From Promethearchaeota archaeon (GTDB lineage Archaea > Asgardarchaeota > Lokiarchaeia > Sigyniarchaeales > SOKP01), in contig JBHLOY010000001.1 in assembly GCA_048939995.1 (NCBI GenBank), forward strand, positions 96,001 to 160,000: a DNA stretch of 64,000 nucleotides. Direction: 5' to 3'. The position numbers and the translations under genes are program-made. Under the pieces are notes generated by a model. It did not search any database and was not told the DNA's origin. It saw nothing but the letters and a program-made list of their open reading frames with translations. Positions 8,916-21,404 of the stretch are shown here, one piece after another; the first letter of the stretch is position 1; each line of letters starts with the position of its first letter.

Positions 8916-9563
8916 TTACTCATGAATAATTAGTATTTCAGGAGTTATTGAAGGATAAAGTATTCCTAATTGTTTCCAAAAGTCAATAAATACCCATTCA
9001 TTCCCTAGTGGATACTGATCTGCTTCATGAGCTTTGCTAAATTGATAATCAAGTCGATTTTCTGAATTGAATTGCACGAAGTAGGGTTCTATAATCTTCT
9101 CTTCAGTATCAAAATAAAAAGCTATTTTTTTAATGTTCCCTTTGAATGATTGCCAATCTCCTTTTTTCTCATATTCCTCTGGATATGAACAAAATTGATC
9201 TACTTGATTACCATTAAAATATACGTAATGATACCAGACGTCAGAATCATATACTTCGATTAAAGAAACAAGGGTTTGTAATTGAATTGACGTAAATTTA
9301 CAGATTTCTTTCTCTTCAAAATGACAATTATTATAAATAACTACAGACCAATTATTTTGCATTGGATAAATTGCTGTCATCGAAATTGGCTGACTGATAA
9401 TATCATGAATATCAAAGTCTTTTTTTTGTTTAGAATCTATCCAATCAGAAAAAGACATAATTCTAGTAACCATATTAGCACGAGCCAAATATGACTTAAT
9501 TGAAGCTGTGATTTCAATTGGAGTCTTATTTTTTACTGCTGAAACAAAAAGAAATAATCCCAT
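8916..9563 (-). CDS. Hypothetical protein
   Basis: 215-aa ORF with normal composition. Confidence 0.6.
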   Translation of the reverse strand: MGLFLFVSAVKNKTPIEITASIKSYLARANMVTRIMSFSDWIDSKQKKDFDIHDIISQPISMTAIYPMQNNWSVVIYNNCHFEEKEICKFTSIQLQTLVSLIEVYDSDVWYHYVYFNGNQVDQFCSYPEEYEKKGDWQSFKGNIKKIAFYFDTEEKIIEPYFVQFNSENRLDYQFSKAHEADQYPLGNEWVFIDFWKQLGILYPSITPEILIIHE

Positions 9564-9654
9564 ACAACTAATTTCTATATACTACTCCAATCTTTTATAA
9601 GTTAACTATTTTAACTTATTCTTCTACTATTCAATCATCAGATAAAATCGAATT

Positions 9655-11679
9655 TTATTTCCTTAATTTTAAAAATCTGGCATTAATAGCAACAATCACC
9701 GTACTTAAAGACATAAGAATGGCTCCAATAGCAGGATTTATTAATATTCCAAGACTAAATAACACTCCTGCAGCTAGAGGAATCGTGAATACGTTATATC
9801 CCGTAGCCCAGATAAGGTTTTGAATCATTTTTTTATAGGTCGCTTTACCAAATCCTATTAAAGAAGTCACATCTTTTGGATTACTATTTACTAAGATTAT
9901 ATCAGCAGTTTCAGCAGCAACATCAGTACCAGATCCAATTGCAATTCCAACATCTGCTTGAGCTAATGCAGGAGCATCATTAATTCCATCACCAGTCATT
10001 GCTACAAATTCACCTTTAGATTGTAGCTCTTTAATTTTTTCTAACTTTTCATGAGGAAGCACTTCAGCATAATATCCATCAAGATTCAACTCCTCTGAGA
10101 CTGTTTTGGCAGTTTTTTCATTGTCTCCTGTTAACATCCAACATTTAATACCCATAGACTTTAATTTCTTAATAGCATCATGAGATTCTTCCCGGATTTG
10201 ATCTGAAAGACTAATAGCACCAATTAACTTATTCTCACCAAGGATTACAAATACAATAGTATCTATTGGACCCCGTCTCATATTTTCAGGGGTAGGAATA
10301 TTCAGTTCATTTAGATAGTTTGGACTAATAACGCTAACCATCTCTCCATTGACAATTCCTTCAACTCCCTTACCTTTAATAGCTTTAAATTCTGTGGGGG
10401 ATTCCAGAGAAAGATTCATGTTGTGTGCTTTTTCAACAATTCCTTTAGCAATTGGATGTTCAGAATTTTGTTCTAACGAAGCAACTATTTGAATAATGTT
10501 CTGTTCGTTATAATTATGATTAAAAGATTGTACAACATTTACACCGAAAGTTCCTTTTGTCAATGTTCCAGTTTTATCAAATACTATAGTGGAAATTTTT
10601 CTAGATGCTTCAAAAGATGTACGATTTCGAATCAATAATCCACTTTTTGCGGAAAGGGAAGTAGAAATTGCAACAACTAATGGAATCGCTAACCCAAGTG
10701 CGTGTGGACAAGTAATAACCATCACAGTAGCCATTCTCTCTATTGAAAAATTAAAAGATTCTCCCAATAACAACCATGTTAGTAATGTAGTAAATCCAAC
10801 AGTCAATGCTATAACAGTGAGCAAAAAGGCAGCTTTATCAGCAAGTCTTTGGGTATTTGATTTAGAGGCCTGTGCGTTTCTCACTAAGTTAATAACTTTT
10901 GATAAATATGAATCTTCTCCTGTACTTTCTACTTGAATCTCAAGAGACCCATCTCCATTAACAGAACCACCAATCACCTTGTCTCCGCTTTCTTTTTCAA
11001 CAGGTACTGATTCTCCTGTTAACATAGACTCATCAATATAGCTCGAACCATTCAGAATTAAGCCATCAGATGGTATTTTCTCACCAGGTCTTATCAAAAC
11101 CTTATCTTGTATTCTTAATTTACTAATCTCAACATCCACAATCTCTCCATCTCTCATTAAATGGGCTGTTGATGGCATTAGTTCCACTAACTTCTCCAAT
11201 GCTCTAGAAGCTCCTAAAACTGATTTCATTTCAATCCAATGCCCTAAAAGCATAATATCTATCAATGTTGCTAATTCCCAGAAAAATGGAGTTCCTTCTA
11301 ATCCTAAAATTGTTGCAGCACTATAAATGTATGCAACAGAAATAGCCACGGCAATCAAAGTCATCATTCCAGGAGCTTTTTTCCTTAATTCATCTATAAT
11401 TCCTTTAAGGAATGGCCATCCACCATAAAAGAAAATGAAAGAAGCCATAATCAGAAGAATATAATCTAAACCAAGAAAGCTAAAACTAAATCCTAGCCAA
11501 CCCTGTATTGTGGGAGATAATATAAGAATGGGAACAGTGACGATTAAAGAAACATAGAATCTTCGTCGAAACTCTTTTATCATCATTCTATGATGAGCGG
11601 ATTGATCTTTATGGCTTTTATGTTCTGTCTTATTCGATACGTGAGTATTATGAGAATGCATTCGATGATTATTTTTCAA
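9655..11679 (-). CDS. copB: CopB-type P1B-3 copper-transporting ATPase
   Basis: His-rich N-terminus, TGES, CPH motif, DKTGTLT, SEHP, GDGIND, YN and MSLST in TM7/8. Confidence 0.93.
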
Positions 11680-11759
11680 TTCTTTTATTAATATACCTTT
11701 TTTAATATTTTAAAAATATTTTATTTATATTTTAGAATTAATTAGATTGAAAAATAGTT

Positions 11760-12725
11760 TTAATCTAATCCTATTTGTTCAATTACATTTCTCAGCTTTT
11801 GAGCAGAATTTTTTAAATAATATTCTTCCTCCGAATTTAGATCAAGTTTTAGTACACTTGATACACCTAATTTATTTAAAATCGCAGGTAAACCTAAATA
11901 AACATTGTTTATTCCCAAATAATCTCTTACTAGGGATGAAACAGGTAAAATCGTATTCTCATCATGTAGAATTGCTTGTGTTATTTGGGCAAGAGCTAAA
12001 CCAATTCCATATGATGTCTCACCTTTCCGTTCAATAATCTTATTTGCTGATGTTTTTACTTCTACAAATATCTGATTCAATTCTTTTTCATTATCGCAGA
12101 ATTTCTGTTTATTACAGTTTAAGCAGTAATCTTTAATTAATATACCTGCAAACATAGCACTACTCCAAACTGCTAATTCAGTATCTCCATGCTCTCCGAT
12201 AATGTAAGCATGAATATTTTGAGGATTTATATTACACTTCATTCCTAAAAGGTATCTAAACCTAGCTGTGTCTAATACAGTACCAGATCCAAAAACTTCA
12301 TTTTCAGACTTTTCTGAAAATTTATAAGTTGCATACGATAATATATCAACGGGATTTGAGACAATTAAAAATTTTGCAGAGGGAGTTATATACATTATCT
12401 CTGGAATAATCTTTTCATATAATTTTATATTATCCTTAATCAAATCAATTCTTGTCTCGTTAGGGCGCTGATTTCTTCCAGCAGTTATTACTACTAGGTC
12501 TGAATTCTCAATATCAGAATAATCACCAGCCTCAATTTTTACTGGTAATACATAAGGACCTGTATGGGATAAGTCCATTACTTCACCTTCTACCCGTTTT
12601 TTATCAATATCGACCATCACAATATGACGTACTAATCCTTTAATTATTAAAGCGTAAGCAAATCGAGTACCAACATTCCCGCATCCAATAATAGATATTT
12701 TTGGTTTCAGATTAATCATTTTCAA
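11760..12725 (-). CDS. ldh: L-lactate dehydrogenase
   Basis: IIGCGNVG, TAGRNQRPNETR (Gln at the LDH specificity position), VSNPVD, GTVLDTARF, GEHGD. Confidence 0.85.
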   Translation of the reverse strand: MKMINLKPKISIIGCGNVGTRFAYALIIKGLVRHIVMVDIDKKRVEGEVMDLSHTGPYVLPVKIEAGDYSDIENSDLVVITAGRNQRPNETRIDLIKDNIKLYEKIIPEIMYITPSAKFLIVSNPVDILSYATYKFSEKSENEVFGSGTVLDTARFRYLLGMKCNINPQNIHAYIIGEHGDTELAVWSSAMFAGILIKDYCLNCNKQKFCDNEKELNQIFVEVKTSANKIIERKGETSYGIGLALAQITQAILHDENTILPVSSLVRDYLGINNVYLGLPAILNKLGVSSVLKLDLNSEEEYYLKNSAQKLRNVIEQIGLD

Positions 12726-12885
12726 TACCCCTTTATATTTCTTTTATAATTATTTTATTTTTAAAAGTATGTCTAGTTATTTTATGAAATCCAATTTGAT
12801 TTTTTATATTCAAGTTCTTGATATATTCATAATTTTAAACCCTTTATGTTATATTTCAAAAAAGTTATTAATGAAAAGAAATACA

Positions 12886-12920
12886 TTTAAATATATATGA
12901 TGCAATATATACTTAAAGGT
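12886..12920. promoter_or_regulatory. Putative copper-regulon operator/TATA site A
   Basis: TTTAA-ATATATAT-GATGCA-ATATATAC-TTAAAGGT; TATA-like boxes on both strands; matches sites at 13957 and 18679. Confidence 0.6.
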
Positions 12921-12968
12921 ATATACCCTCAAAAAAAAGAAAAATTAAATAAAAAAAGAGGAAGAATT

Positions 12969-13079
12969 ATGAATAAGAATGAAGAAAAAGAGCAAGAAGA
13001 TAAAGAAAAAATGGAACATATGCATGAGCATAAAGATAAAAAAGAAATGGAAAATATGCACAAACATCATGATATGTAA
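12969..13079 (+). CDS. 36-aa His/Met-rich putative metal-binding peptide
   Basis: MNKNEEKEQEDKEKMEHMHEHKDKKEMENMHKHHDM; GAGG SD-like sequence upstream; TATA 83 nt upstream. Confidence 0.55.
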   Translation: MNKNEEKEQEDKEKMEHMHEHKDKKEMENMHKHHDM

Positions 13080-13286
13080 TCCCATGAAGATAATGAGTTA
13101 AAAAGTTAATCTAAAAATTTTATTTTTTTTGAACTTTACTTCGGCTTAAATAATCAATTGGTTTTAAAATATTCTCCAAAGTTGATTAGAATGTACTTAT
13201 TCTAACCTTTTTCTTCGAGTTAAAAACACAATTTATGAAAAATCGTTAAATTTAGTTTAACATAAAAAAAAAAGTATTCGTAATAG

Positions 13287-13613
13287 TTATATAGTGCTTC
13301 CACAGAAGGGACAATACTTTGATGTCTCACTATCTACTTTTTCTCCGCAATTTGGGCAGAACTGCGTAGTACTATATGAATTTTCTACATCATTTTTAAC
13401 TGAAGTATTTTTTTGATAATCCTGATCGGCTATTTTAGAATTTTTATCAATATTTTCTTCGCTATGATTTCGAGATAGAAAATACAATAGAATTAAAACC
13501 ACAAAAAGAAAGAGAAGCCCTCCTAAAAGTAAATATATCCATCCATTTGGACCCAAATCCATCATATGATTCATATAATCATAACCATTATCCAAAATTA
13601 TTAACTCACCCAA
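13287..13613 (-). CDS. Single-TM protein with N-terminal MNHMM motif and C-terminal zinc ribbon
   Basis: YMNHMMD, TM helix, FCPNCG...YCPFCG. Confidence 0.7.
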   Translation of the reverse strand: MGELIILDNGYDYMNHMMDLGPNGWIYLLLGGLLFLFVVLILLYFLSRNHSEENIDKNSKIADQDYQKNTSVKNDVENSYSTTQFCPNCGEKVDSETSKYCPFCGSTI

Positions 13614-13627
13614 TAATTATGTAAAGT

Positions 13628-13912
13628 CTATTCCCTTTTAGCTATTTCACTTGATTGCCTTTGATTGTAATTTCCTCTGATAATTAGATAAAGAACTAGA
13701 CCAAAAATATTAAAAATCAAAGCAATTATTAACCATACCTCAGAATTAATGATTCCCCTTCTTACAGCATCCCTGTGAACGTAATAGGCAATAATGACGC
13801 TAGTTATTATATAAAGACTCATTCCAAATATCATTATTAGCCATGAAAATGGACCAAATTTAGCAAACCACCAATCCATCATGTGCAAATCTCCATACGT
13901 ATTGAAATACAA
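13628..13912 (-). CDS. Small membrane protein (PLDc_N-like) with HMM motif
   Basis: DLHMMDWW, YVHRDAVRRG, WLIIALIFNIFGLVLYLIIR; GAGGT SD upstream. Confidence 0.7.
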   Translation of the reverse strand: MYFNTYGDLHMMDWWFAKFGPFSWLIMIFGMSLYIITSVIIAYYVHRDAVRRGIINSEVWLIIALIFNIFGLVLYLIIRGNYNQRQSSEIAKRE

Positions 13913-13956
13913 TTTAAGACCTCTTGTTTGACTTTTTATTGTAATATAATCTTAGG

Positions 13957-13988
13957 ATATATATGTAATAGTATATATTTAAAAGTTG
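13957..13988 (-). promoter_or_regulatory. Putative copper-regulon operator/TATA site B
   Basis: ATATATAT-GTAATA-GTATATAT-TTAAAAGTTG upstream of the 13912 gene. Confidence 0.65.
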
Positions 13989-14071
13989 GTATTATTAAAT
14001 ATTATGATTATCAAGTATCATGATCTAAAAATTTGGCAAATATTTCTGTCTTTAAAACAGGTAGGAAATCA

Positions 14072-14695
14072 TCATTTGGTGCCAGTAGCTATATAGTAGG
14101 AAGTTAACAATCCGGATATTTCTACTTTTGTTACATTCTTTAAGTATTGCCTCATTTTCTTCCAAGTTTCACGGGTTACGTCTTGATATGTGATTCTGAA
14201 TAGTAATTTATATATGGGATTTAAAATTACACCCTTATTCCCAGTAATGAGCTGAAAATCTAAAACAACATATTTTCCACCTTCTTTTAAGAATTCAATA
14301 GAGTTTTTCAACGAGATATCATAATCTTGAATAGATACCATCGCCCAAGTACAAAGAATAGCGTCTACTTTCTCATTCAGCTTAAAGTTTGAAGCATCCT
14401 TTTTAAGAAGACTTATGTTCTGCCATCCAAATTTGATCAGCCTATCTTCAGCTTTTTTTAACATTTCTGGAGAGTAATCCAAAGCTAAGATTTTCCCTTC
14501 CTTTCCTATTTTTCTTTCAAGATATTCAAAATTAAGACCTGTTCCACAAGCGAGATCTAGAACAGTTTCACCTTTGTTAAGTTCTAATTTCTCAACAGCT
14601 TGTTCACGAAACATTGCATCATAGCCTACTACTGAAAGTAAAATATCCCATATTTTTGCCCATCTATCCCAAATCTTGAGGTAATTATTTGTCAT
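14072..14695 (-). CDS. Class I SAM-dependent methyltransferase (UbiE-like)
   Basis: VLDLACGTG, ALDYSPEML, LKEGG. Confidence 0.85.
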   Translation of the reverse strand: MTNNYLKIWDRWAKIWDILLSVVGYDAMFREQAVEKLELNKGETVLDLACGTGLNFEYLERKIGKEGKILALDYSPEMLKKAEDRLIKFGWQNISLLKKDASNFKLNEKVDAILCTWAMVSIQDYDISLKNSIEFLKEGGKYVVLDFQLITGNKGVILNPIYKLLFRITYQDVTRETWKKMRQYLKNVTKVEISGLLTSYYIATGTK

Positions 14696-14739
14696 TAAGC
14701 ATTCTGGATATAAAATATTTAATTATACTTTTTTAAAAT

Positions 14740-15297
14740 TCAAATAAAACGTCTAACTTCTCTACAATATATATCATATTCCTCTTTAAATTGCTCTTTT
14801 AACCATGGCTCTTCTGTAAAAGGAGTAAGGAAATTCCACAATATTCCTAAAATACCTGTTATCAAAGTAAAAAAAGAATTGGCAAGAATTATCAATCCGG
14901 CATATAATATTATATCAGCTAAATATTGGGGATTTCTTGAATATTTGTAAGGACCATCTTTGATTAATTTCCCTTTTAATCCAAGAGTTGAGTGAACACT
15001 TAAAGTTCTCACACCCCAGATAAGAATAAATAATCCAATTACGATTAATGATATTCCTATTGGGTAGCGAAACCAGTGTATAAAAATGAAATTTTTCCAG
15101 TCTAAAACGCTCAATATGATTGTTCCTACGAATGAGATGATTGTGACAACCCAACTGATCCAAAATTGCCATGATTTTTTACTGGGTGGAGGCCAAATTC
15201 TATATTTTGGCATGATTAATGTAAATATCAACCCTCCCACAAGCAATATGCTTGCAGTAAGAGTTATTATAAATATAATTATCGTTATAATTCCCAT
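14740..15297 (-). CDS. ICMT/PEMT-family membrane methyltransferase
   Basis: LIKDGPYKYSRNPQY, EEPWL..F.EEY..YCREVRRFI. Confidence 0.85.
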   Translation of the reverse strand: MGIITIIIFIITLTASILLVGGLIFTLIMPKYRIWPPPSKKSWQFWISWVVTIISFVGTIILSVLDWKNFIFIHWFRYPIGISLIVIGLFILIWGVRTLSVHSTLGLKGKLIKDGPYKYSRNPQYLADIILYAGLIILANSFFTLITGILGILWNFLTPFTEEPWLKEQFKEEYDIYCREVRRFI

Positions 15298-15302
15298 TAT
15301 TG

Positions 15303-15647
15303 TTATTCCCTCCTATTCTGAACGCTTTTTTTTCTGCACTCCCTCTTCATATCCTTTTCACTTAATAATCCATTATTCTCTAAGGGGATATTGAGTTCAA
15401 TTTCAGAACTTCTTATTTTTCTCATGAGTTGTCTAAGACCATAATCATTAAATATCAATTCTAGAAAATTCTGATATAGCATCTTAAGATTATCCATACA
15501 TAATTTAATAAACAGATCATTTTCTTTAGAATCCATAATATTTAGAATTGCTTGAAGCCCTTTTATGGCATCCTTAATATTTTCAAAGTTATTAATTACT
15601 TTTTCAGTCGATTCCATTGAAAATTTTGTAATTATAATAATTTTCAC
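15303..15647 (-). CDS. Hypothetical helical protein
   Basis: Overlaps the stop of the upstream Cys-rich gene; the start may be the downstream ATG (MESTEKV). Confidence 0.55.
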   Translation of the reverse strand: MKIIIITKFSMESTEKVINNFENIKDAIKGLQAILNIMDSKENDLFIKLCMDNLKMLYQNFLELIFNDYGLRQLMRKIRSSEIELNIPLENNGLLSEKDMKRECRKKSVQNRRE

Positions 15648-15892
15648 ACCCCATCTAGTTTAGATTGATTGGAATTGACCAATTTAGCTATTTTGGTTTC
15701 ATAGATTGAAAGACATCTGTAGCAACAGAAATATGAAATTTTTCCATATTTATCTCTATATCTTGGTGCCGATAGATAAGCTGGAATTCCCATACCACAT
15801 AATGTACAAGATTCATGTATATCTGCATCAGATCTTATAACTTTTCTACAAATGGGACATAATTTTTCTTTCAAAAATACAACACCTTTCAA
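15644..15892 (-). CDS. Cys-rich TRASH/YHS-like metal-binding protein
   Basis: CPIC...CTLCG...YFCCYRC. Confidence 0.65.
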   Translation of the reverse strand: MKGVVFLKEKLCPICRKVIRSDADIHESCTLCGMGIPAYLSAPRYRDKYGKISYFCCYRCLSIYETKIAKLVNSNQSKLDGV

Positions 15893-15931
15893 GCATTTTA
15901 ACTTAAAAAATTAAAAAAAATATTTTTATTA

Positions 15932-16099
15932 TTAAATAATACTCATTTGGTGACCACAGTGCTCAGGGATGGGTTTAGTTCCACAGTGAGATCCCATCCA
16001 ACAAATCAATTTATCGCCTTCTTTATGCATAACTACACCACAATGTTGTGGTATATCCATTTCATAACCACACATAGAACATTTTAACTTTTCCATCAT
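15932..16099 (-). CDS. 55-aa Cys/His-rich miniprotein (two CxxC...HCG..M repeats); not in ORF track
   Basis: MMEKLKCSMCGYEMDIPQHCGVVMHKEGDKLICWMGSHCGTKPIPEHCGHQMSII*; GAGGTG SD; starts 21 nt after the copA stop. Confidence 0.8.
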   Translation of the reverse strand: MMEKLKCSMCGYEMDIPQHCGVVMHKEGDKLICWMGSHCGTKPIPEHCGHQMSII

Positions 16100-16120
16100 A
16101 ATACACCTCTTTTTTTAATT

Positions 16121-18622
16121 TTAATTACTATAATTTGGAAGTATTTTTGACCTGCGAAGGAGATTTGCATTAGATACTACCGTTATCGAACTTGTAGCCA
16201 TAGCTATTTCCGCAATCAGTGGATGAGCTAATCCTAGCATGGCAGCTGGTAATGCTATTAAATTATAAAAGAATGCCCAAAACAAATTTTGTTTGATTTT
16301 CTTAAAAGTATTTTTTGATAATTTTATTGCTGAAATGACTCCAGATAAGTTTCCACTAACTAATGTAATATCTGCTGATTCAATAGCGATATCTGTTCCA
16401 GTGCCAATTGCTATTCCTACATTAGCAGCCGTTAAAGCAGGAGCATCATTAATTCCATCACCTACCATAGCTACTTGTTTTCCACTCTCTTGTAATCTTA
16501 GAATCTCATTTACTTTTTCATCTGGTAACACCTCCGCTATAACTTGTGAAATACCTATTTTTTTTGCAATTGCTTCTGCTGTACGTTCATTATCTCCTGT
16601 TAACATGACGGTTTGTATTCCAAAATCTTCCAATTCTTTAATAGCAGGTATTGAGTCCTCTTTGATTGTGTCTGCTATTGCTAAAATTCCAGCTAATTCA
16701 TTATTAACTGAAACTAAGATCACCGTCTTAGCCTCGCTTTCTAAGGTTTCAATTTTATGATTATAACTTTTATAGTCAATATCATTCTCAATCATCAATT
16801 TCTTACTGCCTATAAGAATTGATTTTTCAGCACTTAAGGCAATTTTTGCTTGAACACCCTTGCCTGTCAAGGATTCAAAATTACTAATATTGAATAAATC
16901 AAAATTATAATCCTTTGATTTCCTCAAAATAGCATCTGCTAATGGATGTTCAGATCCAGCCTCGACGCTTGCAGCATATTTCAGCACCATTTCAGTTGAG
17001 AAATTCTCTGTTGTAATTATGTCAGTCACTTCAGGTGTTCCTTTTGTAATAGTTCCGGTTTTATCAAATACAATAGTGTTTATTCCTCGTAAAGTTTGGA
17101 TAGCCTCACCATGTCGAATGAGAATTCCATGTTCCGCACCCATCCCACTCCCAACCATTAATGCTGTGGGAGTTGCTAATCCAAGAGCGCAAGGGCATGC
17201 TATAATAAGTGTAGCTATTAAAGTTAAAAACGCAAGAGTTATAATGTTTAGACTAGGATCCACCCAAGGTATAAATTGTTGTACCGCAGCTAAAATTGAC
17301 GTTAAAGGCAAAAATATCCAAATTATGAATGCGACTACAGCAAGAAGCAAAACCACTGGCACAAAATAACTTGTAATTCTGTCTGCAAATTTCTGTATAG
17401 GAATTTTTGATCCTTGAGTTTCTTCCACCAATTTAATAACTTGAGACAAAAATGTATCTTCACCGACTTTAGTGGCCTTCACTTTCAGTAATCCTCTTTG
17501 ATTAATTGTAGCTCCAATTACTTCATCTCCAACTTTCTTCTTAACAGGCATCGACTCTCCAGTCGCCATTGATTCGTCTATAGCACTTTGGCCCTCAATA
17601 ATGATTCCATCTGTAGGTATTTTTTCTCCTGGTTTTACAATCATAATATCATTTTCTTTTAGCTGTTCAATTGGTATCTCAACTTCTTTTCCATCTACTA
17701 AAATAAAGGCACTTTTTGCTCCAAGCTCTAGTAATTTACGAATTGCTTGGGAAGCCCTTCCTTTAGCTTTAGTTTCAATATATCTTCCTGTTAGATGAAA
17801 AGTCATTATCATTGCAGCTACTCCTGAGTAGTTGAAAAGAGGTGAAATATAGGATAAAGGACCGGTTATAAATGCCGAAATTGTTCCAAGAGCAATTAAT
17901 ACATCCATATTTGCATTAAGATGACGCACAGCTTTAAAAGCTGAGATGTAAGTACTGTATCCCACTATAAATAGGGGAAATAAGGATAACAGGATTATTC
18001 CGAAATTATATATGAATTCATCTGGCCAATAAATCCCTCCAATCATTTCTACAAGCATCCAACCAATTATAGGTACTGTAAAAATCCAAGAAATTAACAT
18101 TCTTCTTTTAGCAATTCTATATTTTTTCTCTTCTTGTTCTATCTCACGATCATATTTTGACTTTCCTGAAACTTTTTCTTCAATATCCAAAGCACGGTAT
18201 CCTGTATTATTTATTATTGCAAGCATATCATCATATCCCAATTCATCTGTATCATATACAATCGTGGCTTTTTCTGTCGCTATATTTACAGTTGCACTTA
18301 TTATACCTTCACTTTTCTTAAGTGCCGATTCTACAGTTTGAGCGCAAGATGCACATGTCATACCTTCAATTTTTACGACAATTTTAGTTGAATTTGGTAT
18401 CGCTCCATAACCAGTGTTATTCACAATTTCTATAATTTCTGATTTTTTTATTATCTTAGGATCGTAGGTGAAATAGGCTTTTTCAGAGGCTAAATTAACA
18501 TTTGCATCTCTAATTCCTTCATGCTTGCTAAGTGCTTTTTCGATAGTCTGAGCACATGATGCGCAATGCATTCCTTGTATGTTTAGAAAGGTTACTTTTC
18601 CTTCTTCAACTTTTTCTACCAT
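16121..18622 (-). CDS. copA: CopA-type P1B-1 Cu(I)-exporting ATPase
   Basis: Two GMxCASC HMA domains, TGES, CPC, DKTGT, SEHP, GDGIND, YN, MATSS. Confidence 0.95.
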
Positions 18623-18678
18623 TTTTTCTTCCTTTGTCCATTAATTTTTAATTAAATTTTAAAAAATATTATTCTGAG

Positions 18679-18710
18679 ATATATATGGAGGAGTATATAT
18701 TTAAATGTTG
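18679..18710 (-). promoter_or_regulatory. Putative copper-regulon operator/TATA site C (copA promoter)
   Basis: ATATATAT-GGAGGA-GTATATAT-TTAAATGTTG; minus-strand TTTAAATA starts 83 nt upstream of the copA ATG. Confidence 0.7.
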
Positions 18711-18808
18711 CTATTTGAAAATATATATTTATAAATTATAACAACAATTATTAATACAATGAATTTCTATTATTAAACCAAGAAATACGAAATTAAGGAG
18801 TTTTTTAA

Positions 18809-19246
18809 TTGAGTGATACTATAAAAATTCAAAATCTCACAAAATTTTATACCATAACGTTATTAAAGTCAAAAAAATCGGTTAGTGGGTACTATATTTT
18901 AAAACAACTCAAGTCGGATTTAGGGATAACTGCAAGTCCAACATATATATACAACTTCTTGAATAAGCTTCAAAAAGAAGGATATATTGAACCCACCCCA
19001 AATCCCAAATCAAAAAAGTCGAAAGGATTTCAATTAACTTCATTAGGGAATGAATTTACTGAGCATATTTTTCAACGTTTTAGTAATTTAATAGAAGCTG
19101 CTATAGAATCAAAATTGGAAGTTTGTGCAAGCTGTGGAGTAAAATTGTATAATGATTTTCATACTGAAAAAATTGGAGCAAAAGAGATGAAATTTTGTTG
19201 TATACACTGCGCAAAAGCATATAAAAATTCTCATCAAAAGAAATAA
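18809..19246 (+). CDS. PadR-like wHTH transcription regulator with C-terminal TRASH domain
   Basis: SGYYILKQL...SPTYIYNFLNKLQKEGYI...FQLTSLG; CASCG...FCCIHC; divergent from copA. Confidence 0.85.
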   Translation: MSDTIKIQNLTKFYTITLLKSKKSVSGYYILKQLKSDLGITASPTYIYNFLNKLQKEGYIEPTPNPKSKKSKGFQLTSLGNEFTEHIFQRFSNLIEAAIESKLEVCASCGVKLYNDFHTEKIGAKEMKFCCIHCAKAYKNSHQKK

Positions 19247-19278
19247 TTTATCTTATCCTCTATTCAACAAATTTAGCT

Positions 19279-20241
19279 TTATTCTTGATTATAATTAAGG
19301 GCAAGAATTATTGTTGAAAAATTTCTTTTGAATCCTACTTTAGAATATAATTTATGTGCAGGAACATTTTCCAGTGCCACATCTAAATTTATATATTTAT
19401 AACCTTCTTGTTTTACCTTTTCTAAGCAGTAGAGTAATAGTTTTTTTCCTAAACCTTTCTTGCGATAATCTGGAAGTAACCCAAAAGAATTAATTTGTAC
19501 ACCATTTTTGAAGGGGCGTAATATTAAGAATCCAATAATTTTTTCGTTTCCAAATAATATTGAAGAATTGTTAATCATAATTTTTTCTATGTTAAACCAT
19601 TCAGTTGCTACAGTATTTTTTAATTCATTATTTAAATCTAAATACATTACATCTTGGCTATTTTCATATATTTTTTGAGACACAGTAATTAATTCATCAA
19701 TATCTACATATTTTATAGTTTTAATTTCGATCTTTTCAGAAAACGATAATGGTTCAACTTTAATTGTATCTAAATCTAAACTCATTGAGACTTCTTCCAT
19801 TACTTTATAAAAACCTGATGCTTCATACCATCTAATGTATCCTTGATACCTTTTCTTATCTTTATCATGCTCCATTGGAAAACATATTTCAAATCGGATA
19901 ATATCGTTTTCCTCACCATATTTAATAGCTTCGTCTATTAATTTTTGCGCAATCTTATCTTCATGAATATTAGGTAAAACTGTAGGTTGCCATTCCCAGA
20001 TGATACCAAATTTTGGATAACTAGTACATAATAAAAGCAGGCCCATTAGTTCGTCATTAGAATATGCATAAAATATGATGAATCTATAAGAATTTCTAAG
20101 TTCATCTAGGTCTCTTCTGATTACCTCAATGGTTATAGATTCATTGATTTCACGTCGATCATAATATACTTTGAAAATAAATTTAGATAGTGTTTCAATA
20201 TCCACTTTTTCATCCAAAAGTTCGAATTTGATATCTAACAT
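19279..20241 (-). CDS. Tandem-domain GNAT acetyltransferase
   Basis: GLLPDYRKKGLG, LDVALENVPAHKLYSKVGF. Confidence 0.8.
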   Translation of the reverse strand: MLDIKFELLDEKVDIETLSKFIFKVYYDRREINESITIEVIRRDLDELRNSYRFIIFYAYSNDELMGLLLLCTSYPKFGIIWEWQPTVLPNIHEDKIAQKLIDEAIKYGEENDIIRFEICFPMEHDKDKKRYQGYIRWYEASGFYKVMEEVSMSLDLDTIKVEPLSFSEKIEIKTIKYVDIDELITVSQKIYENSQDVMYLDLNNELKNTVATEWFNIEKIMINNSSILFGNEKIIGFLILRPFKNGVQINSFGLLPDYRKKGLGKKLLLYCLEKVKQEGYKYINLDVALENVPAHKLYSKVGFKRNFSTIILALNYNQE

Positions 20242-20390
20242 TGCTTTATTATGATAATAATATGAGATTTAGTATTTAATCTATTAAATCATCCTGATAA
20301 TAAAAAAAGTAAAGAAATAAAGCAAATTAAAATTAAAGAAAAAGTAAAAAAGTAAGAATAGTAAAAACAATATAATAAAAGAAAATTTAT

Positions 20391-21404
20391 GTGAAAGTTA
20401 TGGTTGAGTTTGAAATATGGAAACTTTATAAAAGCATGCTATATAGTCGCTTTTTTGAGAATGCTGTGAAAGATTTATGGGAAAAGGGAAAGATTTCCGG
20501 TGAAATGCATCTTGGAACAGGAGAAGAAGCTATTATAGCATGCGTAGTTTCACATTTAGAAAAGGGGGATGCTATAGCAGTTGACCATCGCGGAACAGCA
20601 GCATTTATAATACGAGGAGTTGATCCAGTTTTGTTATTATTAGAATTTTTAGGTCATCCTAAAGGGCTCTGCGCTGGGCAAGGAGGCCACATGCATCTCT
20701 TTTCAAAAGAACATTTGATCGCATCATCAGGTATTGTGGGGGCATCAGGTCCAGCAGCTACAGGATTTGCTTTAGCTTTAAAATACAAAAAGCAAAGAAA
20801 TATCGCTGTTGCATTCTTTGGAGAAGGTGCAATGAATCAAGGTATGATGCTTGAGTCAATGAACTTAGCTTCTGTTTGGAATTTACCTGTCCTCTTCGTC
20901 TGTAAAGATAACAATTGGGCAGTTACTACAATTACAAATGAAGTTACAGGAGGTAATTTAATAGATAGAGCAAAGGGTTTTGGCATTGAAGGATATGAAG
21001 TTGACGGGAAAGATTTAGAAGCAGTTTGGAAAGTAGCAAACGAAACAATCTCCAAAATACGTAATGATGATGGACCTAAGTTTATTCATGCACATTGTGT
21101 ACACACAGAAGGTCATTTTCTTGGGGATCCACTACTCAGATATTATCGAAATCCTAATCTGTTAACAGAAGTTGCTGATTCTCTTAAAGAGTATGCTGGG
21201 AAAAATTTAGATGAGATTCTTTTATTGTTACGGAAAATAGGGGGTCAAACTAAGAAAAAACTAGATCCTATAGCTGATGTTCAGAAAAAGTTGAAGAACG
21301 AACAAGATCGCCTTAGACAAATAGAACAAGAAGTAACAAAGGAAGTTGAGCAGTCAATTAATAGAGCATTAGAAATTTTTGAAGGAGGGATGAAAAATGG
21401 TTAA
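20391..21404 (+). CDS. TPP-dependent 2-oxoacid/acetoin dehydrogenase E1 alpha subunit
   Basis: HLGTGEEA, GQGGHMH, GIVG, FFGEGAMNQG...DNNW TPP motif, EGHFLGD. Confidence 0.9.
   Translation: MKVMVEFEIWKLYKSMLYSRFFENAVKDLWEKGKISGEMHLGTGEEAIIACVVSHLEKGDAIAVDHRGTAAFIIRGVDPVLLLLEFLGHPKGLCAGQGGHMHLFSKEHLIASSGIVGASGPAATGFALALKYKKQRNIAVAFFGEGAMNQGMMLESMNLASVWNLPVLFVCKDNNWAVTTITNEVTGGNLIDRAKGFGIEGYEVDGKDLEAVWKVANETISKIRNDDGPKFIHAHCVHTEGHFLGDPLLRYYRNPNLLTEVADSLKEYAGKNLDEILLLLRKIGGQTKKKLDPIADVQKKLKNEQDRLRQIEQEVTKEVEQSINRALEIFEGGMKNG

Follow-up and report, generated by a model that had tools for sequence, protein, structure and literature searches.

A palindromic core-promoter element as the candidate operator of a PadR-TRASH regulator in a copper cluster of a Promethearchaeota archaeon

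The Copper Cluster and Its Three Palindromic Sites

The window considered here is a stretch of 64,000 nucleotides (nt) from a Promethearchaeota archaeon (contig C11, positions 96001-160000, in a genome of 38 contigs, 3,754,348 bases and 30.5% GC that was scanned in full). It contains a cluster of copper-handling genes in which one palindrome, fused to a TATA-type box, occurs three times. In this cluster copA, encoding a copper(I) exporter, is divergent from the gene of a small protein that joins a PadR-type winged helix to a TRASH-like cysteine motif (PadR-TRASH). The palindrome is probably the operator of this protein. The sites and the regulator gene are as follows:

Site A: 12886..12926, plus strand; TTTAAATA box at 12886-12893, fused with a row of three half-sites that recur every 14 bp, namely ATATATAT (12891-12898), ATATATAC (12905-12912) and GTATATAC (12919-12926)
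Site B: 13957..13983, minus strand; TTTAAATA at 13976-13983, fused to ATATATAC-TATTAC-ATATATAT
Site C: 18679..18705, minus strand; TTTAAATA at 18698-18705, fused to ATATATAC-TCCTCC-ATATATAT
Extra half-site: 18721..18728; ATATATAT, on the regulator side of site C at a distance of 28 bp (2 x 14), adjoining a TTTATAAAT box
Regulator: 18809..19246, plus strand; 145 amino acids, divergent from copA

The palindrome covers 22 bases and reads ATATATAY-N6-RTATATAT (ATATATAT-N6-RTATATAY in the pattern search). A preliminary description of this DNA had placed it at 12891, 13957 and 18679, with the spacers GATGCA, GTAATA and GGAGGA, and had each site overlap a TATA box; all of this was borne out, and TTTAAATA was found at all three sites. 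The box always has the same orientation relative to the downstream gene that it faces, and read toward that gene the layout is TTTAAATATATAY-N6-ATATATAT at each site. Site C faces the copA operon, with the copA ATG 56 nt away and, on the other side, the regulator start 104 nt away; site B faces two small "HMMDW" membrane proteins (TM94 and ZnRib108), and site A faces a peptide of 36 amino acids with Met/His repeats. Between sites B and C the identity is 78% across 60 nt. At site A, a TTTAAGTA box is present on the minus strand, in agreement with the earlier claim of TATA-like boxes on both strands.

The possibility raised at the outset that the motif might be equally frequent in unrelated AT-rich DNA was contradicted by these scans. 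The whole genome holds three matches to the palindrome pattern, against 0 expected; these are the sites of the window, all within 6 kb of copper genes, and 100 dinucleotide shuffles of the window produced 0 matches. A position weight matrix (PWM) built from relatives scores above 20 bits in the genome only at the cop-locus sites, site B being the best (23.3 bits), and a third-order Markov genome gave no match above 18 bits. Two additional PWM matches in the genome were not counted as regulon members, being neither copper-related nor conserved: C31:44011 (19.1 bits), 16 nt from the start of a gene for a secreted protein of 828 amino acids, and C17:107216 (15.7 bits).

The distances noted earlier between the first T of TTTAAATA and the start codon were also recovered, at 83 nt for the copA ATG (18705 to 18622), 83 nt for the peptide ATG (12886 to 12969) and 71 nt for the TTG at 13912. 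A fixed spacing of 83 nt was nevertheless rejected as a functional feature, since for orthologues of the peptide the TATA box is 75 and 66 nt away and the coincidence is one of chance. An origin in a mobile element or a long repeat was likewise set aside: the only repeat similarity seen was the promoter-sized one of sites B and C (60 nt), with no terminal repeats. An Rfam search of positions 9000-20500 for RNA elements in the leaders returned nothing at E up to 0.1.

The PadR-TRASH Regulator

The regulator comprises a PadR-type winged helix (residues 10-76), a long helix (78-102) and a TRASH-like motif, C106-x2-C109-x20-C130-x3-C134. The preliminary assignment of the gene divergent from copA to a PadR-TRASH protein was upheld by a Pfam match, by the predicted fold and by the invariance of the TRASH cysteines. 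PF03551 (PadR) scores 33.3 bits against a cut-off of 27 over residues 18-83, whereas family searches gave no match to Lrp/AsnC. A profile of 13 regulator orthologues searched against the PDB found PadR-family chains first, nearly all matches being PadR, with a best E-value of 1e-7. The AlphaFold2 model (mean predicted local distance difference test 90.7) has helices at 10-21, 27-38 and 44-56, a wing at 60-76 and a helix at 78-102, followed by a small beta module and a helix; this is the three-helix winged helix-turn-helix, beta wing and long C-terminal helix of PadR subfamily 2, in which that last helix makes the dimer. Its best PDB folds are LmrR and PadR, with TM scores of about 0.7 normalized to the target and sequence identities of 19-28%. 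C106, C109, C130, C131, H133 and C134 are invariant in 56 sequences and fit the TRASH pattern C-x2-C-x19-22-C-x3-C. As modelled, the regulator belongs structurally to the PadR family and carries a TRASH-like module in addition. In public databases such proteins appear under no other names than PadR family, helix-turn-helix or TA0938 family, and a literature search with most subscription journals outside its coverage found no description of PadR-TRASH regulators.

Conservation of the Candidate Operator

The palindrome was followed through relatives of the window genome (Promethearchaeota, Loki-type Asgard archaea) in 44 loci whose regulators are 56-81% identical to that of the window, in a set of 59 distinct sites or site clusters, and in 18 copA-o55 loci without an adjacent regulator. 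It lies 70-143 nt upstream of the regulator start in 44/44 loci. A count of upstream dyads that was blind to the motif ranked ATATA-N8-TATAT first (41/44), followed by ATATA-N10-TATAT and TATAT-N10-ATATA (40/44 each), all three being parts of one palindrome, and control windows, taken where each locus is richest in AT, gave no dyad in more than 8/44. The count recovers the palindrome de novo, and the motif proves to be present rather than absent ahead of orthologous cop genes.

Across the 59 sites the half-sites are near-invariant and the spacers variable, the sites having been chosen by the motif; a TTTAA flank outside the search pattern is conserved in 46-55 of them. Position 8 of the palindrome is only C or T and position 15 only G or A. 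N6 prevails among the spacers, odd lengths hardly occur, and the counts of N4, N8 and N10 fit two-base register slips of alternating AT at the same sites. Degenerate extra half-sites at 14-bp steps on the regulator side recur in relatives; in the window, the half-site at 18721-18728 might be an autoregulatory contact, a weak candidate.

Nearly all of the 59 site clusters adjoin the regulator or a homologue of ZnRib108 (24), copA (16), TM94 (12) or copB (2), which makes the ZnRib108 homologue the commonest gene directly behind the operator. An operator of the site B type stands ahead of TM94 homologues in 12 related loci and, at a contig end, in two further genomes. The motif is specific to the copper cluster and conserved before cop genes, which supports the suggested candidate copper regulon.

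Co-occurrence With the Regulator

The operator accompanies the regulator rather than copA. The 18 copA-o55 loci that have no adjacent PadR-TRASH gene, one of which belongs to a second copA of the window genome on contig C7, hold no site at up to 2 mismatches, and the operator accompanies the regulator beside two types of copA, roughly 41% and 80% identical to that of the window. An exact-pattern scan of 41 genomes (the window genome and 40 relatives) found exact sites in 10 of the 11 genomes with a close regulator orthologue, the window genome included, and the eleventh (G003) has a site with one mismatch in its cop locus. Except for two identical copies in one genome, all sites of the regulator-bearing genomes are in the cop locus. 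Near-complete genomes without the regulator have no sites, or only (AT)n runs. The apparent exceptions, G006 and G022, have sites before TM94 homologues at contig ends, and their regulator gene is probably unassembled.

The two identical copies outside the cop locus are exact and belong to G012 (L094:25-46 and L091:4001-4022). One precedes a gene for a secreted protein of 266 amino acids and the other an open reading frame (ORF) for a ribbon-helix-helix-like product of 75 amino acids; these genes are possible lineage-specific members of the regulon.

More distant PadR-TRASH homologues (36-41% identity) occur in Bathyarchaeia, Thorarchaeota, Woesearchaeota, Hydrothermarchaeales and other Promethearchaeota, mostly beside copA. 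Upstream of their regulator genes stands ATATATC-N6-9-GATATAT or a close variant (L079, L082, L085, L088, L080 and L083), a shifted version of the window operator that is absent from the 18 regulator-less copA loci. From these few examples, operator and regulator look as if they co-vary across the wider family.

Promoter Geometry

The palindrome overlaps the last 3 bp of the TTTAAATA box. Taking TTTAAATA as the working TATA box (about -30 to -23) would place the palindrome at about -25 to -4 and make a T-A step conserved among the 59 sites, four nucleotides after the palindrome, the start site. In the 59 target promoters, start codons come no closer to the end of the palindrome than 31-34 nt, and there they have an AAGGTGG Shine-Dalgarno sequence; this agrees with a transcription start immediately past the palindrome. 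The distribution of TTTAWATA upstream of 2,187 long ORFs of the genome is broad (20-100 nt) and does not fix the start site.

Two further stretches are conserved in the 59 sites, a TATAATA-like one at -18..-11 and a TAARRTAATA-like one at +25..+34 relative to the palindrome (window examples at 18665-18724 and 13943-14002). A second TATA box, a divergent promoter, an initiator or a leader are candidate roles for them.

Proposed Mechanism and Alternatives

We propose, with a probability of about 0.7, that the inverted repeat ATATATAC-N6-GTATATAT, joined at one end to a TTTAAATA TATA box, serves the PadR-TRASH protein (gene at 18809-19246) as its operator, and that it mediates repression relieved by copper. 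From the uniqueness, conservation and position of the motif, its co-occurrence with the regulator gene and the domain make-up of the regulator, all of which were computed, we infer that the protein binds this DNA, that it does so as a dimer, that it represses rather than activates and that copper is its ligand. A dimer of the LmrR-like winged-helix protein would sit on the palindrome, covering the end of the TATA box (3 bp) and the stretch on which RNA polymerase is loaded, and would so keep three promoters shut, those of the copA operon, of the HMMDW membrane-protein pair and of the Met/His peptide. The three half-sites of site A would give room for two dimers. Binding of Cu(I) to the C-terminal TRASH cysteines would then make the protein lose its grip or change its shape, and the promoters would fire. 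PadR-family dimers bind inverted repeats and are released by their ligand, and the perfect inverted repeat of the candidate operator is consistent with this. Repression relieved by copper is the likeliest mode because the TATA box and the expected start flank the palindrome, and release by Cu(I) is favoured because the known PadR-family proteins are repressors released by a ligand.

Several points weigh against copper-relieved repression as proposed here. The related genomes are kin to one another, so that the 44 loci are not 44 independent tests. A second conserved TATA-like element, TATAATA, lies 14 bp upstream of TTTAAATA and leaves two candidates for the working TATA box; should TATAATA be the working one, the palindrome would cover the start site, a repressor-type position in either case. 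The Pfam models of TRASH stay below their cut-off on the regulator (PF24273 at 20.8 bits against 27); PF11494 (Ta0938) reaches 17.5 bits, and marks of PF24273 and PF11494 are present on several orthologues in the precomputed Pfam table. In addition, release by copper is no safe default, as the CopR-type TRASH regulators of Pyrococcus and Saccharolobus activate copA and stay bound with copper; the one of Thermococcus is a repressor.

These precedents lead to an unlikely but credible alternative, in which the same protein on the same palindrome acts as a copper-dependent activator or dual regulator that remains DNA-bound and reshapes the promoter upon binding copper. Pyrococcus CopR, bound with and without copper and stimulating copA, would be its model, as would the bacterial MerR/CueR. 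An operator inside the core promoter is a MerR-type layout too, and extra half-sites at 14-bp steps could support higher-order complexes. However, archaeal activator sites usually lie upstream of the B recognition element (BRE), as the Pyrococcus cop motif does, whereas the palindrome lies between TATA box and start codon; and the characterized proteins to which the regulator is matched in fold, PadR and LmrR, are repressors released by ligand.

Far less probable is that the palindrome is a genuine cis-element of the cop genes but is read by another factor, be it some other transcription factor or a specialized pair of TBP and TFB, while the PadR-TRASH gene is a co-inherited neighbour. Alternating AT half-sites do resemble TATA boxes, and the co-occurrence could mean that the island is inherited as one block. 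Against this, copA loci without the regulator also lack the motif, even where both kinds of locus share a genome, and the motif follows the regulator across both copA types; the inner C/G of the half-sites and the strict N6 exceed the needs of a TATA box; and a shifted palindrome goes with the distant regulator homologues. That the three sites are meaningless, whether as chance matches in AT-rich, low-complexity DNA or as recent promoter duplicates, is scarcely credible despite the low GC content of the genome and an identity of sites B and C that could reflect duplication, given the empty shuffles and Markov genome and the conservation of the site with variable spacers across 44 species-level loci.

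Comparison With Known Systems

The proposed PadR-TRASH repressor and its operator resemble the archaeal CopR/CopT systems (Pyrococcus furiosus PF0739, Thermococcus onnurineus TON_0836 and Saccharolobus solfataricus CopR) in having a small regulator with a C-terminal TRASH cysteine motif, a regulator gene divergent from copA with which it shares a divergent promoter region, and a small local copper regulon. CopR has an Lrp/AsnC-type helix-turn-helix, forms an octamer that wraps about 150 bp and activates copA in Pyrococcus, where its semi-palindromic motif, TTNNCAWWWTGNNAA, is directly upstream of the BRE. In the window, by contrast, the DNA-binding part is a PadR/LmrR-type winged helix rather than an Lrp/AsnC helix-turn-helix with a RAM-like oligomerization domain, and the motif, ATATATAC-N6-GTATATAT, is downstream of the TATA box and overlaps it. 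The suggestion that the motif is not a described CopR/CopT box therefore holds with respect to Pyrococcus TTNNCAWWWTGNNAA. The system would work like the CopR/copA switch but lacks two defining features of that family, the Lrp-type helix-turn-helix and the box upstream of the BRE.

With PadR subfamily 2 (LmrR of Lactococcus lactis and PadR of Bacillus subtilis, PDB 5x11) the regulator shares the winged helix and the long C-terminal helix, and its candidate operator is, like theirs, a palindrome in the core promoter of adjacent or divergent targets. For the known members, the ligands are phenolic acids or drugs, taken up in a dimer-interface pocket, and the operators are of the ATGT-N8-ACAT type. 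We know of no member of subfamily 2 with a TRASH metal-binding domain, nor of one studied on an archaeal TBP/TFB promoter. A third comparison concerns promoter logic alone: as for MDR1 of Archaeoglobus and Phr and LrpA of Pyrococcus, the position of the operator between TATA box and start implies blocked recruitment of TBP/TFB or polymerase, although the protein families and operator sequences are unrelated. MDR1 is also responsive to metal.

On balance we favour the view that PadR-TRASH proteins form a second class of archaeal copper sensor, present in several phyla and distinct from the Lrp-type CopR, with an alternating-AT palindrome in the core promoter as operator and a regulon that points to copper-handling proteins. 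The operator would then take the form ATATATAC-N6-GTATATAT in the window and ATATATC-N6-9-GATATAT in Thor-, Woese-, Bathy- and Hydrothermarchaeal relatives, and one half-site would share bases with the TATA box. The TRASH metal module would thereby have been built into an archaeal copper sensor at least twice, with an Lrp scaffold in one case and a PadR scaffold in the other. Such a domain swap is in itself unsurprising. To our knowledge, next to nothing has been learned of gene regulation in Asgard archaea, and a protein of 145 amino acids with a 22-bp site makes a clean, conserved predicted regulator-operator pair on a eukaryote-like TBP/TFB promoter that could be tested with recombinant protein, an unusually clean entry to Asgard transcription control. 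The regulon also flags copper-linked candidates that have not been studied: the HMMDW membrane proteins, the MEHMHE-repeat peptide and a Cys/His miniprotein of 55 amino acids.

Genes of the Cluster

The genes of the cluster are as follows:

copB: 9655-11679, minus strand; CopB-type ATPase with a CPH motif and a His-rich N-terminus, divergent from site A
ldh: 11760-12725, minus strand; lactate/malate dehydrogenase, divergent from site A
Met/His peptide: 12969..13079, plus strand; 36 amino acids with KEMEHMHEH-type repeats and an AGAGGAA Shine-Dalgarno sequence, behind site A
ZnRib108: 13287..13613, minus strand; 108 amino acids with an N-terminal HMMD, one transmembrane helix and a C-terminal zinc ribbon, second gene behind site B
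TM94: 13628..13912, minus strand; two-helix membrane protein of 94 amino acids with an N-terminal HMMDWW motif, first gene behind site B
Genes close behind copA: 14072..16099, minus strand (same strand as copA)
copA: 16121..18622, minus strand; P1B-1 copper(I) exporter, behind site C

CopA has two GMxCASC HMA domains, CPC at 476 (transmembrane helix 6), YN at 786 (helix 7) and MATSS at 808 (helix 8), and scores above the cut-offs of TIGR01511 and TIGR01525. This P1B-1 copper signature favours copper as the metal of the cluster. The genes that follow encode the miniprotein of 55 amino acids (15932-16099), a Cys-rich protein of 82 amino acids (15644-15892), an ORF product of 114 amino acids, a PEMT-type methyltransferase and an S-adenosylmethionine methyltransferase; they are probably the tail of the copA operon, and their order recurs in L035. 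The miniprotein is rich in Cys, His and Met and matches no family. In almost all Promethearchaeota loci examined, whether or not they have the PadR-TRASH regulator, copA is followed by a homologue of the miniprotein gene.

The HMMD(W) motif common to TM94 and ZnRib108 precedes the first transmembrane helix, and neither protein has a Pfam family above cut-off, the only signal being a faint PLDc_N-like one. Taken together, homologues of the two are the most frequent genes immediately behind the operator in the 44 relatives. The Met/His peptide has no signal sequence and no Pfam match. Its orthologues, of 40 amino acids (L033:2652-2774) and 44 amino acids (L036:448-582), carry 2-3 MEHMHE repeats; it is thus kept in the two closest loci that reach its position, with a triple half-site operator upstream in both. 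It is a candidate cytoplasmic copper-binding peptide or copper buffer.

Whether site A could also drive ldh-copB, as had been suggested, is uncertain. Site A is at least 160 nt from the ldh start, and no operator at up to 2 mismatches stands directly before copB; CopB is divergent from the triple site in L033 too. In that locus (L033:2469-2522) CopB is directly beside the triple site, and between them is only a remnant of 18 amino acids that matches the C-terminus of ldh. This suggests that ldh was lost in the L033 lineage or inserted in the window genome.

The second copA-o55 pair of the window genome (C7:42350-44503) has neither a PadR-TRASH gene nor an operator. The window copA is 60-62% identical to copA of another family (the Harpocratesius group) and only about 41-46% identical to copA of the same genus. 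By this comparison, the cop cluster of the window may be a laterally acquired island or an old paralogue.

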